A stretch of DNA of 64,000 nucleotides from a phage, in the sequence record PZ534512.1. One strand, written 5' to 3'. The notes below the pieces were generated by a model. The model did not search any database. It worked only from the letters and a program-made list of their open reading frames with translations, and was not told where the DNA came from. Of this stretch, positions 3,455-51,855 are shown piece after piece. The translations under genes and the position numbers were made by a program. Every line of letters starts with the position of its first letter. Within the stretch, counting starts at the first letter, position 1.

Positions 3455-3719
3455 TCTTTATGAAAATGAATCTTTTGCTAATCAATTACGTGAAAAAGCA
3501 CTTAAAAGTAAACAGTTTAAGCTAGAGTGTTTTATTAAAGATTTTTCGGAACTTGCTAATAAAGCAGCTGAACAAGGTAAAACATATTTTAGTTATTATT
3601 GTACTGCTCGCGATAAATTGATTACTGAGGAAATTGGTGATTGGCTGAGAAAAGAAGGATTTAATTTTAAAGTCAATAGTGATCAGCGTGATGGTGATTG
3701 GTTAGAAATTACATTTTGA
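3441..3719 (+). CDS. hypothetical small protein (T4 24.2 position)
   Basis: ORF between hoc and rnlB; synteny only. Confidence 0.45.
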   Translation: MEQYDLYENESFANQLREKALKSKQFKLECFIKDFSELANKAAEQGKTYFSYYCTARDKLITEEIGDWLRKEGFNFKVNSDQRDGDWLEITF

Positions 3720-3728
3720 GGATTAATT

Positions 3729-4733
3729 ATGTTTAAAAAGTATAGCAGTCTTGAAAATCATTACAACTCTAAATTTATTGAAAAACTTTATAGCTTAGGA
3801 TTGACTGGCGGCGAATGGGTAGCTCGTGAAAAGATTCACGGCACAAATTTCTCATTGATTATTGAGCGTGATAAAGTAACTTGCGCTAAACGTACTGGAC
3901 CGATTCTTCCTGCTGAAGATTTCTTCGGTTATGAAATTATTTTAAAGAATTACGAAGATTCTATTAAAGCTGTCCAAGAAATTATGGAAACTTCAGCTGT
4001 TGTGACTTATCAAGTTTTTGGCGAATTCGCTGGACCTGGCATTCAGAAGAATGTTGATTATGGCGATAAAGATTTTTATGTATTTGACATTATTGTCACT
4101 ACCGAAAGTGGTGATGTAACTTATGTTGATGATTACATGATGGAATCGTTTTGTAATTCATTTGGGTTTAAAATCGCTCCACTTTTGGGTCGTGGTAAAT
4201 TTGAAGATCTTATTAAACTTCCAAATGATTTGGATTCTGTTGTTCCGTCTTATAATTTTACAGTAGATAATGCAGGTTTAATTGACGCTAACAAATGCGT
4301 TTGGAAAGCTGAAGCCAAAGGCGAAGTATTTACCGCTGAAGGATATGTATTGAAACCTTGTTATCCTTCTTGGCTGCCTAATCGCAATCGTGTAGCCATC
4401 AAATGCAAGAATTCTAAATTTAGTGAAAAGAAAAAGTCTGATAAGCCTATTAAAGCTAAAGTTGAACTGTCAGAAGCTGATAACAAATTGGTGGGGATTT
4501 TAGCTTGTTACGTTACACTAAACCGAGTAAATAACGTTATTTCTAAAATTGGTGAAATTGGTCCAAAGGATTTTGGAAAGGTGATGGGGCTAACTGTCCA
4601 AGATATTTTGGAAGAAACTTCTCGTGAAGGTATTACTCTAACTCAAGCAGATAATCCTTCTTTGATTAAGAAGGAATTAGTTAAAATGGTACAAGATGTA
4701 CTTCGTCCGGCTTGGATTGAATTGGTAAGTTAA
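3729..4733 (+). CDS. rnlB: RNA ligase 2 (Rnl2), 334 aa
   Basis: Translation [43 protein letters not shown]... matches recalled T4 Rnl2, including the KxHGxN ligase motif; 334 aa. Confidence 0.92.
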
Positions 4734-38077: not shown

Positions 38078-38774
<697 letters not shown>

Positions 38775-38846: not shown

Positions 38847-39104
38847 ATGAAAACTTTCAAAGAGTTTGCTACAAAAACTGCTATCACTGAATCTTCTCAC
38901 GGTATGGAAGTAAAGCTTGGAATGGCTTTAGCTGAAGCTGAGCGTCTTTTCTCTCGTATTAAAGAACTTGCTGCTGCGGTCGATCCTTCGTCTTTTAAAG
39001 GAGACCAAACTAAAGTTAAAGCACTTTTAGCGTTATGCTCCGATGCAGGAGAAATTGCTAAAAATGGTTCTAAGATGAAGAAACGATTAGAAGATTTAAA
39101 ATAA
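38847..39104 (+). CDS. internal-protein-like small protein with capsid targeting sequence (IPI locus)
   Basis: N-terminus MKTFKEFATKTAITE resembles the T4 CTS (MKTYQEFIAE); sits at the ipI position after 57B behind its own early promoter. Confidence 0.6.
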   Translation: MKTFKEFATKTAITESSHGMEVKLGMALAEAERLFSRIKELAAAVDPSSFKGDQTKVKALLALCSDAGEIAKNGSKMKKRLEDLK

Positions 39105-40129: not shown

Positions 40130-40202
40130 TGGGAATTAGCCAAGTTGGTAAGGCACTGGATTTTGATTCCAGGATGCAAAGGTTCGAGTCCTTTATTCCC
40201 AG
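40130..40202 (+). tRNA. tRNA-Gln (anticodon TTG)
   Basis: Cloverleaf read by eye: acceptor TGGGAAT/ATTCCCA, anticodon loop TTTTGAT, T-arm GGTTCGAGTCC. Confidence 0.85.
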
Positions 40203-40203
40203 C

Positions 40204-40290
40204 GCGAGAATGGTCAAATTGGTAAAGGCACAGCACTTAAAATGCTGCGGAATGATTTCCTTGTGGGTTCGAGTCCCACTTCTCGTACCA
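40204..40290 (+). tRNA. tRNA-Leu (anticodon TAA), long variable arm, CCA encoded
   Basis: Acceptor GCGAGAA, anticodon loop CTTAAAA, T-arm GGTTCGAGTCC, 3' ACCA. Confidence 0.85.
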
Positions 40291-40296
40291 AAGTTT

Positions 40297-40368
<72 letters not shown>

Positions 40369-40380
40369 AAATTTAATTTA

Positions 40381-40454
40381 CTCCGTGTAGCTCAGTTTGG
40401 TAGAGCGTCTGCTTTGGGAGCAGAATGTCGTAGGTTCAAATCCTGCCACGGAGA
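40381..40454 (+). tRNA. tRNA-Pro (anticodon TGG)
   Basis: Acceptor CTCCGTG/CACGGAG, anticodon loop TTTGGGA, T-arm GGTTCAAATCC. Confidence 0.85.
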
Positions 40455-40456
40455 CT

Positions 40457-40543
40457 GGAGGCGTGGCAGAGTGGTTTAATGCACCGGTCTTGAAAACCGG
40501 CAGTCGCTCCGGCGACTCATAGGTTCAAATCCTATCGCCTCCG
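40457..40543 (+). tRNA. tRNA-Ser (anticodon TGA), long variable arm
   Basis: Acceptor GGAGGCG/CGCCTCC, anticodon loop CTTGAAA, T-arm GGTTCAAATCC. Confidence 0.85.
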
Positions 40544-40550
40544 TAATTTC

Positions 40551-40623
40551 GCTGATTTAGCTCAGTAGGTAGAGCAACTCACTTGTAATGAGGACGTCGG
40601 CGGTTCGATTCCGTCAATCAGCA
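40551..40623 (+). tRNA. tRNA-Thr (anticodon TGT)
   Basis: Acceptor GCTGATT/AATCAGC, anticodon loop CTTGTAA, T-arm GGTTCGATTCC. Confidence 0.85.
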
Positions 40624-40629
40624 TATCAA

Positions 40630-40701
40630 GGCCCTGTAGCTGGAAGGTTCAAGCAAGCGACTCATAATCGCCAGATGGTGGTTCAATTCCACCCAGGGCC
40701 A
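40630..40701 (+). tRNA. tRNA with CAT anticodon (T4 tRNA-Ile type reading AUA after modification, or Met)
   Basis: Acceptor GGCCCTG/CAGGGCC, anticodon loop CTCATAA, T-arm GGTTCAATTCC. Confidence 0.8.
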
Positions 40702-40742
40702 TATTTTGGGAACATAAATACTCTTAGAAATAGGAGATATTT

Positions 40743-41408
40743 ATGTTCCATTACACTTATAAAATAACAAATAAAATTAATAATAAAATCTATATAGGCG
40801 CTCATTCTACCGAAAATTTAGATGATGGATATATGGGTTCTGGTAAATTATTAAAAAGAGCCCAAGACAAGTATGGTATAGAAAATTTCTCTAAAGAAAT
40901 ATTAGAGTTCTTTGACGATAAAACCTCTATGTTTGAGTCAGAAAAGAATATTGTGACTGAAGAGTTTTTAAAGCGCCCTGACGTTTATAATTTGAAATTA
41001 GGTGGTGAAGGTGGTTGGGACCATTTAAACACTGAAGAATATTTGGATAAAAAGAAAGAAGCTTCCTTAAAAGGAGTTGCCGCTTTTAAAACCAGATTTG
41101 AGAACGACCCAGACCTTAAAGAAAAATATCGTAAAATGGGTTCAGAAAGGTTTAAACAGCTTTGGGATAATCCTAAGTATAGAGAGAAATTTTTAAATAC
41201 TAAATCTTTCTTGGGTAAGACCCATACTCCTGAAACTATTAATAAAATGAAAGAATCTCACGCCAGAAATAAACACCAACAGGGCGAAAAGAATTCCCAA
41301 TTTGGTATGATGTGGATTCATTCATTAGATGAAAAAGTTTCTAAACGTATTAAGAAAACTGACCCAATTCCAGAAGGATGGTTTAAAGGTCGAAAAATGA
41401 AATTTTAA
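40743..41408 (+). CDS. segB: GIY-YIG homing endonuclease SegB-like (221 aa)
   Basis: N-terminal GIY-YIG-type motifs (YTYKITNKINNKIYIGAH...YMGSG); 221 aa and location inside the tRNA cluster as for T4 segB. Confidence 0.85.
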   Translation: MFHYTYKITNKINNKIYIGAHSTENLDDGYMGSGKLLKRAQDKYGIENFSKEILEFFDDKTSMFESEKNIVTEEFLKRPDVYNLKLGGEGGWDHLNTEEYLDKKKEASLKGVAAFKTRFENDPDLKEKYRKMGSERFKQLWDNPKYREKFLNTKSFLGKTHTPETINKMKESHARNKHQQGEKNSQFGMMWIHSLDEKVSKRIKKTDPIPEGWFKGRKMKF

Positions 41409-41411
41409 CTA

Positions 41412-41488
<77 letters not shown>

Positions 41489-46412: not shown

Positions 46413-46943
<531 letters not shown>

Positions 46944-46947
46944 AGCT

Positions 46948-46977
46948 GTTTACTTTCTCTTGCAATTGTGATAGTAT
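46948..46977 (+). promoter_or_regulatory. T4-type early promoter
   Basis: GTTTAC (46948-46953), TAGTAT -10 (46972-46977), upstream of the IP-like gene at 47032. Confidence 0.6.
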
Positions 46978-47031
46978 ATTCACAGTTACTTGAATAGATA
47001 AATTACTAATTAAAATATTTAAAGGAAACGC

Positions 47032-47349
47032 ATGAAAACATATCAAGAATTTATTGCAGAATCTGCTGCAGGACAGCGTGTAGAAGGCGGTTATATCTGG
47101 ATTGAACAAGTTGAGCCGCCAAGTCGCACTTCTACAGGTAAATGGAAAATCACTGTTGATGGTCCTGGTGGTAAACGTAGGACTCTTAAAGAAATTAACG
47201 GGTACTATGAAGAAGCTCTTTCTGACGCGGGTACTTATATGATGCAAATCATGATTAAAAACCCAGAAAATCGTTTTGCGGCTAGAGTTTTCCGCCGTAT
47301 TGGAAATAAGCTTTATGATGCATATTCTAAAAACTTCCCTAAAGAATAA
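47032..47349 (+). CDS. internal protein with capsid targeting sequence (105 aa; ipIII/ipII locus)
   Basis: N-terminus MKTYQEFIAES equals the canonical T4 CTS; basic small protein downstream of e. Confidence 0.65.
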   Translation: MKTYQEFIAESAAGQRVEGGYIWIEQVEPPSRTSTGKWKITVDGPGGKRRTLKEINGYYEEALSDAGTYMMQIMIKNPENRFAARVFRRIGNKLYDAYSKNFPKE

Positions 47350-47365
47350 AAATTAAAGGATACAC

Positions 47366-47839
47366 ATGAAAACATATCAAGAATTTATTACTGAAGCAGC
47401 TATTAATTCTCAAATTATTGCTGAATCTTTTACTGATCTTTTGAAATTTAAAAAAGGTCAAAAAATCACTGCTGTATTGGATGATGGTACAGAAATTGAG
47501 ATGGATGTACAAGGATATAATTATGCAGTAGATGGAAAACTGTATAATAAATCTCATGCTAAATTTGATTCATTTGACGACTTTGTTAATACAGTTGAAG
47601 ATGAAAAAACTCGTCGATCCATTGCAACTGGTGATGCTAAGGTTCTTATGGCACATGGTCATGAACGCATTCGCGCTAAACAGAATAAAATGGGTGAAGA
47701 TAATTTTGCATTAGTTGGTTATCAATCTGGTAAACAAACTTATGGCTATCAACGTACTGCTACAATGTATAATAAAAATGGTAAAATTGCCTTTGTAAAT
47801 AGTAAAGGTTCTATTCAGTACGTTAAATCGTTCAAATAA
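47366..47839 (+). CDS. internal protein with capsid targeting sequence (157 aa; ipII/ipIII locus)
   Basis: N-terminus MKTYQEFITEA equals the canonical CTS. Confidence 0.65.
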   Translation: MKTYQEFITEAAINSQIIAESFTDLLKFKKGQKITAVLDDGTEIEMDVQGYNYAVDGKLYNKSHAKFDSFDDFVNTVEDEKTRRSIATGDAKVLMAHGHERIRAKQNKMGEDNFALVGYQSGKQTYGYQRTATMYNKNGKIAFVNSKGSIQYVKSFK

Positions 47840-47917
47840 TATGGGAACAGCCTGGACCTCATTTGAGGTATTCCCGCCAACCTGTGATAAGGTCGAGCCA
47901 AAGCGCGGTAATGGGTA

Positions 47918-48517
47918 ATGCAGGAATGGACAACTCATGTGCCATGGAATGGCCCAAAAATTAAGAGAGAAAATATGAAAACATTTTTAACTGGCCCGTA
48001 TCTATCCCTGATGAATGCTTTTACACACCATTCTGATGCTAGAGTAGAAGAAATTTGTAAAAACGAATATATCCCGCCATTTGAAGAATTACTTAAACAG
48101 TACTGTACACTTCGTATAGATGGTGGACGTCAATCCGGTAAATCACTTGCTGTGACTAACTTTGCTGCTAATTGGCTGTATGATGGCGGAACAGTTATTG
48201 TTCTATCTAATACTTCAGCTTACGCTAAAATTTCTGCAAATAACATTAAAAAGGAATTTTCGCGTTATTCTAATGATGATATACGTTTTCGTTTATTTAC
48301 TGATTCTGTGCGCAGTTTTATTGGTAATAGAGGTAGCAAGTTCAGAGGTTTATCGCTTTCACGAATTTTGTATATAATTGATGAGCCTGTTAAATCTCCT
48401 GATATGGATAAAATTTACGATATTCATATTGAAACTGTGCAACACTGTTGTCGAAGCTATAATGCTGAAACAGGTGAAACAGTTCGTCCTCAATTTTTTG
48501 TGATTGGAATGCAATGA
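47918..48517 (+). CDS. predicted P-loop NTPase (199 aa; alternative start 47975)
   Basis: Walker A DGGRQSGKS and Walker B-like ILYIIDEP; occupies the slot where T4 has denV/vs.8. Confidence 0.5.
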   Translation: MQEWTTHVPWNGPKIKRENMKTFLTGPYLSLMNAFTHHSDARVEEICKNEYIPPFEELLKQYCTLRIDGGRQSGKSLAVTNFAANWLYDGGTVIVLSNTSAYAKISANNIKKEFSRYSNDDIRFRLFTDSVRSFIGNRGSKFRGLSLSRILYIIDEPVKSPDMDKIYDIHIETVQHCCRSYNAETGETVRPQFFVIGMQ

Positions 48518-48843
48518 TGACAGACACACAGCTTTTCGAATATCTTTATTTTTCGCCAAAAACTATTAAAAATAAATTGGTGAATCATTTTGAAATTTTG
48601 GCAAATAATAACATTTTGAGCGAATTTTATCCCAAGCAATACAAATTACAAAAAGGCGTATTCAAAGGATGCAGAGTTTTGTGCACTGCTCCTAATGCAC
48701 GGCTAATGAATAAAATTCCATATTTTACCATGGAATTTATTGATGGACCTTTTAAAGGACTAATCACCCAAAGTTTAATGGCATATGATTCTGAGCCATT
48801 TTTAATTAAAGAACAATCTTGGATAAATTTATTTTCTAATTGA
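48514..48843 (+). CDS. hypothetical protein (109 aa; vs.7 position)
   Basis: ORF overlapping the upstream stop (ATGA). Confidence 0.5.
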
Positions 48844-48850
48844 GGTTTAT

Positions 48851-49213
48851 ATGAAAGCATATCAAATTCTTGAAGGCACACATAAAGGTACTATTTATTT
48901 TGAAGATGGTATTCAAGCACGAATTATTGTCTCTAAAACCTTTAAAGAGGACTCTTTTGTAGACCCAGAAATTTTCTATGGTTTGCATGCCCGTGAAATT
49001 GAAATTGAGCAACAGCCTACAGTTAAAATTGAAGGTGGTCAACACCTGAACGTTAACGTTCTGCGTCGCGAAACTTTGGAAGATGCAGTTAAGCATCCGG
49101 AAAAATATCCGCAGCTGACCATCCGTGTATCCGGTTATGCAGTTCGCTTTAACTCTCTGACTCCGGAACAGCAGCGCGACGTTATCGCTCGTACCTTTAC
49201 TGAGAGTTTGTAA
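48851..49213 (+). CDS. autonomous glycyl radical cofactor (GrcA/YfiD-like), 120 aa
   Basis: C-terminal glycyl-radical signature [13 protein letters not shown] and flanking sequence ([52 protein letters not shown]) closely resemble E. coli GrcA and the pyruvate formate-lyase C-terminus. Confidence 0.85.
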
Positions 49214-49434
49214 TGGCAAAGATAATTATTGAAGGTTCTAAAGATGTGCTAAATGCTTTCGCCGAGTGGTTTAGTAATTCAGGCGAACAGCAATTTAATG
49301 AAGCCTGGAATATGGGTGATATTGATGGAATTTATCCTACGACAGAAATTTCTGTTCAAGGATATGGCATTCATGAACCTATTCGTTTAGTTGAATATGA
49401 TTTATGTACTGGTGAGGAAGTCAAATATGATTGA
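49213..49434 (+). CDS. hypothetical small protein (73 aa; vs.5 position)
   Basis: ORF; overlapping start/stop with neighbours. Confidence 0.45.
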   Translation: MAKIIIEGSKDVLNAFAEWFSNSGEQQFNEAWNMGDIDGIYPTTEISVQGYGIHEPIRLVEYDLCTGEEVKYD

Positions 49435-49693
49435 AGACATTAAAGGTTATAAGCCGCATACTGAAGAGAAAATCGGTAAAGTGAATGCTATTAAAGACGC
49501 TGAAGTTCGTTTAGGACTTATCTTTGACGCTTTATACGATGAATTCTGGGAAGCACTAGATAATTGTGAAGATGATGAACTCGCGAAGAATTATGCTGAA
49601 AGCCTCGATCAGTTAACTATTGCTAAAACGAAACTCAAAGAAGCCAGTATGTGGGCTTGTCGTGCAGTGTTCCAACCAGAGGAAAAATACTAA
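49427..49693 (+). CDS. small protein at T4 vs.4 position, candidate Acb2-type cyclic-oligonucleotide sponge (88 aa)
   Basis: ATG at 49427 (ORF track starts at a TTG, 49391); gene order regB-vs.3-vs.4 counted back from regB; homology to Acb2 not verifiable here. Confidence 0.45.
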
Positions 49694-49971
49694 TGGCTCA
49701 ATTAAGTGCAGGGTTTGGTTATGAGTATTATACTGCACCTCGTCGTGTATCTGCCGCTCCTAAGAAAATTCAAAGTCTTGATGACTTCCAGGAAGTAGTC
49801 CGTAAAGCTTTTCAGGACTATGCACGCTATCTTAAAGAAGATTCGCAGGACTGTCTCGAAGAAGATGAAATTGCTTACTATGAGCAGCGTCTTGAACAGC
49901 TTAAAAACTTACATGAGGTTCGTGCAGAAGTTTCAAAGTCTATGAATAAATTGATTAGATTTAAAGAATAA
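49693..49971 (+). CDS. hypothetical protein (92 aa; vs.3 position)
   Basis: ATG at 49693 overlapping the upstream stop (TAATG). Confidence 0.5.
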
Positions 49972-49974
49972 CTG

Positions 49975-50004
49975 TTTACTTTTCCTCTTGACTGTGGTAT
50001 AATT
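49975..50004 (+). promoter_or_regulatory. T4-type early promoter upstream of regB
   Basis: GTTTAC (49975-49980), 18-nt spacer, TATAAT (49999-50004). Confidence 0.75.
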
Positions 50005-50030
50005 TTTCTATCAGTTAAGAGGAGAATAAC

Positions 50031-50492
50031 ATGACTATCAACACTGAAGTTTTTATCCGTCGAAATAAGCTTCGTCGTCACTTTGAGTCGGAGTTTCGTC
50101 AAATTAACAATGAGATTCGTGAGGCATCAAAAGCAGCAGGGGTCTCATCGTTTCATCTAAAATATTCTCAGCATCTTCTTGATCGTGCAATTCAACGGGA
50201 GATTGATGAGACATATGTTTTTGAATTATTCCATAAAATAAAAGATCATGTTTTAGAAGTTAATGAATTCCTGAGTATGCCTCCGCGTCCTGACATTGAC
50301 GAGGATTTTATTGATGGGGTTGAATATCGTCCTGGACGTTTAGAAATCACAGATGGAAATCTTTGGCTTGGATTTACAGTTTGTAAGCCTAATGAGAAGT
50401 TCAAAAACCCGTCACTTCAATGCAGGATGGCAATTATCAACAGTCGTCGTTTACCAGGAAAGGCTTCTAAAGCAGTAATTAAAACTCAATGA
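50031..50492 (+). CDS. regB: RegB site-specific endoribonuclease (153 aa)
   Basis: Translation MTINTEVFIRRNKLRRHFESEFRQINNEIREASKAAGVSSFHLKYSQHLLDRAIQ... matches recalled T4 RegB. Confidence 0.93.
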   Translation: MTINTEVFIRRNKLRRHFESEFRQINNEIREASKAAGVSSFHLKYSQHLLDRAIQREIDETYVFELFHKIKDHVLEVNEFLSMPPRPDIDEDFIDGVEYRPGRLEITDGNLWLGFTVCKPNEKFKNPSLQCRMAIINSRRLPGKASKAVIKTQ

Positions 50493-50499
50493 GGTAAAC

Positions 50500-51045
50500 A
50501 TGAGAAAAGCACTACTCGCTGGTCTATTGGCCATTTCAATGATGGCACATAGCTCCGAGCATACTTTCAGTAATGTCCAACTCGATAACATGCGTTACGC
50601 GTATCAATTCGGGGAACAATTTTCTAAGGATGGAAAATATAAAACACACAAAAATATCCACAAGAGCGGATTAGGTCATATAATGGCTGCCATTTTATGG
50701 CAAGAAAGCTCTGGCGGAGTTAATTTAAAATCTAAACCAAAGCATCACGCCTACGGAATGTTCCAAAATTATTTGCCTACTATGCGAGCAAGAGTTAAGG
50801 AACTTGGTTATAATATGACCGATGCTGAAATAAAAAGAATGTTGAATAAACGGTCCAATTCAGCTTCCTGGGCGTACATTGAACTTTCTTATTGGTTAAA
50901 TATACATAAGGGCGATATAAGAAAAGCAATATCCTCTTATAATTCGGGATGGAATGTTAAAGCAGGTTCTAAATATGCTTCTGAAGTCCTAGAAAAGGCT
51001 AATTACCTTAAAAATAATAAACTTTTGGAAATAGTAAATGACTAA
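50500..51045 (+). CDS. secreted lytic transglycosylase-like protein (vs.1-like), 181 aa
   Basis: N-terminal signal-peptide-like segment (MRKALLAGLLAISMMAHS) and SLT-type motif (WQESSGG...YGMFQ). Confidence 0.65.
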   Translation: MRKALLAGLLAISMMAHSSEHTFSNVQLDNMRYAYQFGEQFSKDGKYKTHKNIHKSGLGHIMAAILWQESSGGVNLKSKPKHHAYGMFQNYLPTMRARVKELGYNMTDAEIKRMLNKRSNSASWAYIELSYWLNIHKGDIRKAISSYNSGWNVKAGSKYASEVLEKANYLKNNKLLEIVND

Positions 51046-51379
51046 AATTTTGGTTTTATGTATAGGATTAATTTCATTTTCTGCGTTAGCAGATACATCA
51101 TATACTGAAATTAGAGAGTATGTAAACCGTACTGCAGCGGATTATTGCGGGAAAAATAAAGCATGCCAAGCTGAATTTGCGCAGAAATTAATATATGCAT
51201 ATAAAGACGGAGAAAGAGATAAATCAAGCAGATACAAAAATGATACATTGTTAAAACGATATGCTAAAAAGTGGAATACCTTAGAATGTTCAGTTGCGGA
51301 GGAGAAAGATAAAGCCGCTTGTCATTCAATGGTTGACCGTTTGGTAGATTCTTATAATCGAGGATTGAGTACTAGATGA
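51038..51379 (+). CDS. hypothetical protein with N-terminal signal peptide (113 aa; T4 vs position)
   Basis: ORF; hydrophobic N-terminus MTKILVLCIGLISFSALA; position only. Confidence 0.45.
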   Translation: MTKILVLCIGLISFSALADTSYTEIREYVNRTAADYCGKNKACQAEFAQKLIYAYKDGERDKSSRYKNDTLLKRYAKKWNTLECSVAEEKDKAACHSMVDRLVDSYNRGLSTR

Positions 51380-51855
51380 TTGTAAAATATATCAAGGGCG
51401 ATATTGTCGCCCTCTTTCTTGAAGGTAATATTATTGCGCACGGGTGCAATTGTTTTCATACAATGGGCAGTGGTGTAGCTGGTCAATTAGCAAGAGCCTA
51501 TCCCAAAATTTTAGAAATAGATAAGACCACAACTGAATATGGTTCGCGTGAAAAACTCGGTGATATGTCTATTGTTTTTAAACATAAACCTAATGGTTTT
51601 GGCATATGTTATAACTTGTATACGCAATACGAACCAGGTCCTAATCTTGATTATGGTGCTTTAGTAAACTGCATGATAGAATTAAATCTACAGGCAGAAA
51701 CCCTTTTGTTTAAACCGGTAATTTACATTCCACGCATAGGTTGTGGTATTGCTGGCGGCGATTGGGATAAGGTTTCTAAATTAATCGACATGTTTACTCC
51801 TGATATTGATTTAATAGTGGTGGATTATGAAAGTGCATTACCCGCATCCGTTTGA
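51376..51855 (+). CDS. macro-domain protein (putative ADP-ribose binding / ADP-ribosyl hydrolase), 159 aa
   Basis: KGDI...AHGCNCFHTMGSGVAGQLARAYP and IPRIGCGIAGGD resemble macro-domain motifs (GDIT...NAAN...GGGGVxGAI; hPxIGTGhxGhP). Confidence 0.6.
   Translation: MIVKYIKGDIVALFLEGNIIAHGCNCFHTMGSGVAGQLARAYPKILEIDKTTTEYGSREKLGDMSIVFKHKPNGFGICYNLYTQYEPGPNLDYGALVNCMIELNLQAETLLFKPVIYIPRIGCGIAGGDWDKVSKLIDMFTPDIDLIVVDYESALPASV

Follow-up and report, generated by a model that had tools for sequence, protein, structure and literature searches.

The window analyzed here is a stretch of 64,000 nucleotides of phage DNA (sequence record PZ534512.1). Its vs.4 gene is surrounded by a tightly packed run of genes on the + strand, and the following features are relevant for its interpretation.

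38319..38774, + strand: acb1 (57B), 151 aa, cyclic-oligonucleotide phosphodiesterase (7T26/7T27, PF23474)
48851..49213, + strand: vs.6, GrcA-like glycyl-radical protein (PF01228, 67 bits)
49213..49434, + strand: ORF of 73 aa in the vs.5 slot, by its position before vs.4
49414..49417, + strand: Shine-Dalgarno-like GAGG, read from the sequence, 9 nt 5' of the ATG at 49427
49427..49693, + strand: acb2 (vs.4) CDS, predicted cyclic-dinucleotide sponge (translation, 7UQ2, PF24729, kept residues, fold matches)
49693..49971, + strand: vs.3, 92 aa, in the slot between vs.4 and regB
50031..50492, + strand: RegB (PF10715, 231 bits)
51376..51855, + strand: macro-domain protein, ORF in the tk.4 slot (PF01661, 34.4 bits)

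Translation of the vs.4 ORF revealed an ATG start codon (49427-49429), 88 sense codons, and a TAA stop codon (49691-49693). The coordinates and the length of 88 aa given by an earlier, purely sequence-based reading of the window (the first-pass annotation) were therefore exact, and the GAGG element is placed 9 nt upstream of the start. The 3' end of the upstream 73-aa ORF and the 5' end of vs.4 overlap by 8 nt (ATGATTGA), and the TAA of vs.4 in turn overlaps with the start codon of the downstream 92-aa ORF, giving TAATG. This is the coupled arrangement usual in the early regions of T4-type phages, and both the vs.5-slot ORF and vs.3 are translationally coupled to acb2. When positions 46900..51500 were scanned for promoters and terminators, promoter-like sites were no more numerous than in shuffled sequence, and the stretch directly 5' of vs.4 contained none. 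The one notable promoter-like site, a 10/12 match with an extended -10 element, is located at 49975..50003, upstream of regB.

The gene order in the window is e – internal proteins – vs.8 – vs.7 – vs.6 – vs.5 – vs.4 – vs.3 – regB – vs.1 – vs – tk.4 … tk. The first-pass annotation had counted back from regB and arrived at the T4 order regB-vs.3-vs.4-vs.5-vs.6. This order is correct: RegB and the glycyl-radical domain of vs.6 were identified by their Pfam families, and the succession vs.6-vs.5-vs.4-vs.3-regB is the same in the annotated genomes of AR1 and RB14. In AR1, the aligned genes are annotated as e, Ip4, vs.8, vs.7, vs.6, (vs.5 slot), vs.4, vs.3, regB, vs.1, vs, and tk.4 … tk. Over the 1.7 kb from 48800 to 50500, the sequence is 99.4-99.7% identical to the Tequatrovirus phages Ge15, SholemSchwarzbard, and AR1, and shares about 98% identity with hundreds of other T4-like phages. 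For a 20-kb stretch, the phage collection contained no match above ~97% identity at 91-94% coverage, from which we deduce that the window belongs to a mosaic Tequatrovirus.

Several neighbors of vs.4 merit a short description. The vs.6 gene, two genes 5' of acb2, encodes a C-terminal glycyl-radical domain with the motif RVSGYAVRF and is a phage copy of the spare-part protein GrcA/YfiD. The macro domain in the tk.4 slot suggests binding or removal of ADP-ribose and could, judged by its sequence, also have an anti-defence role. For vs.3 and the vs.5-slot ORF, no Pfam family scored above threshold, and the PHROGs matches were solely of 'unknown function'. Their location next to an anti-defence gene makes both of them candidates for additional counter-defence roles.

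The interval between the lysozyme gene e and vs.8 (46943..47918) accommodates two ORFs, 47032..47349 (105 aa) and 47366..47839 (157 aa), the latter of which belongs to a PHROG labelled 'internal virion protein'. Both begin with MKTYQEFI(A/T)E, which we take to resemble the capsid-targeting leader of T4 internal proteins. Similar leaders occur at 38847 (MKTFKEF…) and 41881 (MKSYTQF…). AR1 carries a single gene with this kind of leader (Ip4) in the interval between e and vs.8. No ORF of the size of denV was found in 46943..47918; in T4, denV is located in this interval. Further upstream, eight tRNA genes (Gln, Leu, Gly, Pro, Ser, Thr, Met, Arg) are clustered at 40130..41488. A 221-aa ORF (40743..41408) is located between tRNA-Met and tRNA-Arg and has, from its N-terminal sequence, the look of a GIY-YIG homing endonuclease; matching records name it segB or 'homing endonuclease'.

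The first-pass annotation had assigned the vs.4 product to Acb2/Vs.4 on the basis of position and size, and had proposed an alignment to T4 Vs.4 and characterized Acb2 proteins. A phmmer search against all PDB sequences yielded T4 Vs.4 (PDB 7UQ2) as the top match, with residues 1-88 aligned, 86 of 88 residues identical, and E = 8.5e-55. The Acb2 protein of Pseudomonas phage PaMx33 (8H2J/8IXZ, 'p26') followed as a weaker match at E of about 0.02, covering residues 4-85. The Pfam family PF24729 (Acb2_Tad1_hairpin) was detected with 71.3 bits (E = 7.6e-20; gathering cut-off 27 bits), its complete profile (1-58/58) aligning with residues 7-83. In PHROGs, the product matched phrog_717 strongly (E = 1.8e-32), but this family is labelled 'unknown function'. 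NCBIfam returned no family for either Acb2 or Acb1; its library has no model for either protein, so this result is not evidence against the assignment. The name of the Pfam family also raised the identity of Tad1 (Thoeris anti-defence 1). We rejected this candidate, as the specific matches in both the PDB sequence and the fold searches were all to Vs.4/Acb2, and neither search returned a direct match to Tad1.

The structure was modelled with AlphaFold as a monomer from the single sequence. The resulting hairpin (pLDDT 86.9) consists of two helices, which span residues 10-45 and 50-81. In a Foldseek search of the PDB, the best matches were the chains of 7UQ2, with an E value of about 1e-9 (7.6e-10) and TM scores of 0.73-0.74. 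Next came the Acb2 structures 8H2X/8H2J (probability 0.98-0.99), whereas lower-ranking matches were generic helical hairpins. Superposition of the model on 7UQ2 gave an rmsd of ~6 Å, which confirms the fold class and not the details. Far from lacking similarity to Acb2/Vs.4, the product thus matches in both sequence and fold, and the assignment that had been based on position and size is well founded.

We then compared the residues of the product by script with those of T4 Vs.4. The residues for ligand contacts, interfaces, and loss of function were taken from PMC10097602, and the pocket residues also from PMC10312549. T4 Vs.4 forms a hexamer that binds three cGAMP molecules with a Kd of about 30 nM (Jenson et al., 2023, PMC10097602). 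Y8 and F82 engage in pi-stacking, while Y8, H11, K23, and R79 provide hydrogen bonds or salt bridges (PMC10097602). Loss of function was reported for Y8, F82, L29, A66, A73, and A77 and for the exchanges T12I, S74N, and A77I, and F33A caused partial destabilization (PMC10097602). In the window, the cGAMP-contact residues Y8, H11, K23, S74, R79, and F82 are identical to T4 Vs.4, as are the hexamer-interface residues L29, F33, A66, A73, and A77; T12 is likewise unchanged. In the phmmer alignment, Y11 and K26 of PaMx33 Acb2, on both of which cGAMP binding depends (PMC10312549), correspond to Y8 and K23.

The sole differences from T4 Vs.4 are C50D and F52L. In the model, positions 50 and 52 fall within the turn and the opening turn of helix 2, and C50D makes E48-D49-D50-E51 at the hairpin turn an uninterrupted stretch of four acidic residues. 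We aligned eight sequences with 30-98% identity, namely those of T4, Yersinia fPS-65, Klebsiella ZCKP1, VR7, Merlin, Miro, and the E. coli siphophage 716R3, plus the query. Y8, K23, A66, A73, A77, and R79 are invariant in this alignment, whereas positions ~37-65, which include 50 and 52, contain no invariant column. The present analysis has established the gene and its reading frame, its synteny and homology, the conservation of the functional residues, and the class of fold.

A tblastn search detected Acb2 in 1240 of 50,697 phage records, in 1232 of them at near full length. Most carriers are Straboviridae of Escherichia, Klebsiella, Shigella, Enterobacter, and Yersinia. Just 8 of the 1240 matching records show at least 99% identity to the query, and 413 show 95-99%; the small number at the top indicates that D50/L52 is a minority allele. 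Outside Straboviridae, the Klebsiella phage ZCKP1 (Phapecoctavirus) has an Acb2 copy with 78% identity. Such closeness suggests that the sponge gene has been exchanged horizontally between phage groups that are unrelated. The E. coli phage vB_EcoS-716R3, whose vB_EcoS name denotes a siphovirus, has a copy with 30% identity directly after its O-spanin gene; the record of 46.6 kb is a partial genome. Nearly all of the 1240 records have the gene annotated as 'hypothetical protein' or 'Phage protein', so annotation lags behind the literature of 2023.

The length of the product could be read differently. The vs.4 frame is open back to a TTG at 49391 in the mechanical ORF list (100 aa), and an in-frame ATG at 49397 would give 98 aa. 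In the record of AR1, the vs.4 CDS has 297 nt, encodes a 98-aa product, and starts at the equivalent of 49397 (AR1 excerpt 3598..3894). We nevertheless favor the 88-aa start at 49427 because of the placement of GAGG and because T4 Vs.4, as well as the homologues with matches reaching residue 1, begin with MIED. Inspection of the sequence ahead of 49391 and 49397 revealed no ribosome-binding site comparable to GAGG. Moreover, the T4 protein that was crystallized and proved active is the 88-aa form, the Pfam domain begins at residue 7, and an N-terminal extension would fall entirely within the vs.5-slot ORF. An extended product of 98 or 100 aa is thus highly improbable. That the ORF is a decayed, non-functional copy, retained by linkage only, is scarcely credible: nothing was found in favor of this reading, its frame is intact, its ribosome-binding site is good, its start and stop are coupled to the neighboring genes, all functional residues are conserved, and the near full-length state of 1232/1240 records argues in the same direction.

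A further reading accepts the orthology to Acb2 but assumes that, compared with T4 Acb2, C50D and F52L shift the ligand range, the affinity, or how visible the protein is to guard systems. The two exchanges are non-conservative and close together, where the hairpin turns and helix 2 begins, and the exact D50/L52 variant is rare when its 8 records are set against the 413 at 95-99% identity. However, both positions are outside the published ligand-contact and hexamer-interface residues and within a segment that varies freely among homologues, and the pocket residues are all identical to those of T4. We consider such a shift very unlikely. The same low credence applies to D50/L52 as an adaptive variant of T4 Acb2, in which the changed charge of the hairpin turn might alter the ligand range or allow escape from a host factor recognizing Acb2, with cGAMP sequestration retained. 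No observation contradicted the main reading. We conclude with high confidence that 49427..49693 represents acb2 (vs.4) from a phage of the T4 type (Tequatrovirus), predicted by homology to T4 Vs.4 to encode a hexamer that sequesters cyclic dinucleotides and thereby acts against CBASS.

The first-pass annotation had also proposed that the phage carries the degrader Acb1 (57B) along with the sponge. This was borne out. The ORF 38319..38774 matched the PDB entries 7T26/7T27 ('Acb1') with E = 4.1e-62, and PF23474 (Acb1) was detected at full length (1-144/144) with 202.7 bits (cut-off 27). The translation contains two H-x-T motifs, H43-S-T45 and H112-I-T114; paired H-x-T/S motifs are catalytic in 2H phosphoesterases. 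Directly 5' of acb1 is an 80-aa ORF, which we take to occupy the position of gene 57A in the T4 map. The statement that the sponge gene lies two genes after the Acb1-bearing cluster does not hold literally: acb1 is located ~10.6 kb upstream of acb2 on the same strand and is not adjacent to it, the tRNA cluster and the e region being situated in between. The pairing of sponge and degrader in T4 has already been discussed (PMC10312549).

Of the known systems, T4 Vs.4 (Acb2, 7UQ2) is the closest. The product described here shares with it the 86/88 identity, the genomic position upstream of regB with vs.5 and vs.3 as flanking genes, and the pocket and interface residues. It differs by C50D and F52L, which map to the turn and the beginning of helix 2, where homologues are variable. 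PaMx33 Acb2 (8H2J/8H2X/8IXZ; Huiting et al., 2023, as relayed in PMC10312549; Cao et al., PMC10312549) has in common the Pfam family, the helical-hairpin fold of ~90 aa, and Y11/K26 as counterparts of Y8/K23, but is only about 22-25% identical to the vs.4 product. An identity of 24.2% has been given for T4 versus PaMx33 Acb2 (PMC10312549). The PaMx33/JBD67 type represents the subclass of Acb2 with a second pocket, which is specific for cyclic trinucleotides, is opened by a kinked helix, and in PaMx33 Acb2 requires R67 and T74. This signature is incomplete in the window: D61 replaces R67, as in T4, and only the equivalent of T74 (T68) is present.

The Tad1 proteins possess a related hairpin domain, which Pfam models jointly as Acb2_Tad1_hairpin, and they also sequester nucleotide immune signals (PMC10680739). 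They differ in that Tad1 binds gcADPR in addition to cyclic oligonucleotides. T4 Acb1 (57B, 7T26), the orthologue of which is encoded in the window at 38319..38774, shares the target, i.e., the cyclic oligonucleotides of CBASS. In contrast to Acb2, which binds the signal without cleaving it, Acb1 is an enzyme that degrades it (PMC10312549, PMC12657218). The folds of the two proteins are unrelated. The structure, mechanism, and T4 homology of Acb2 were published in 2023; the finding as such is already known and adds no new biology.

By homology to T4 Vs.4, the 88-aa helical hairpin would assemble into an interlocked hexamer with three dimer interfaces, each providing one pocket, so that the hexamer would hold three cyclic dinucleotides. 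Stacking on the purine bases of the ligand would be provided by Y8 and F82 in each pocket, and bonds to the rest of the molecule by Y8, H11, K23, and R79. The predicted ligands are 3',3'-cGAMP and related cyclic dinucleotides. Sequestration of the signal that the CD-NTase of the host (the cGAS-like cyclase in CBASS) produces would keep the effector under its activation threshold and allow the phage to complete replication. With the phosphodiesterase Acb1, the phage carries a degrader in addition to the sponge. From the experiments on T4, and given the 98% identity to its protein, we infer that the product forms a hexamer, binds its ligands in the nanomolar range, and counteracts CBASS. For T4 Acb2, a Kd of about 84 nM is given in PMC10312549, and knockout of T4 vs.4 led to a ~50-fold loss of titre on Cap2-inactive CBASS (PMC10097602).

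T4 Acb2 binds a spectrum of cyclic dinucleotides and leaves cA3 and cAAG unbound (Cao et al., PMC10312549). The failure to bind these trinucleotides has been explained by a helix that lacks the kink and by Y37, A57, L60, D61, and T64, which occlude the second pocket, and the exchange D61R did not rescue cA3 binding (PMC10312549). All five residues are identical in the product encoded here, and we therefore predict binding of dinucleotides only. Cyclic trinucleotides are probably left unbound, as with T4 Acb2.

T4 acb2/vs.4 is both necessary and sufficient to trigger OptSE (Panoptes), T4 Acb2 binds 2',3'-c-di-AMP at ~62 nM, and the exchanges Y8A and F82C abolish Panoptes triggering (PMC12657218). 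Since T4 acb2 triggers Panoptes, the phage should be visible to this system as well; Acb2 thus probably renders it visible to guard systems of the Panoptes type.

For annotation, the consequence is that the name acb2 (vs.4) can be assigned confidently to this gene. Equipped with both acb2 and acb1, the phage is predicted to evade most CBASS systems that signal through dinucleotides, and, on account of acb2, to be restricted by systems of the Panoptes type, which sense nucleotide sponges. These predictions on CBASS and Panoptes would be useful for forecasting the host range and for choosing phages for therapy.
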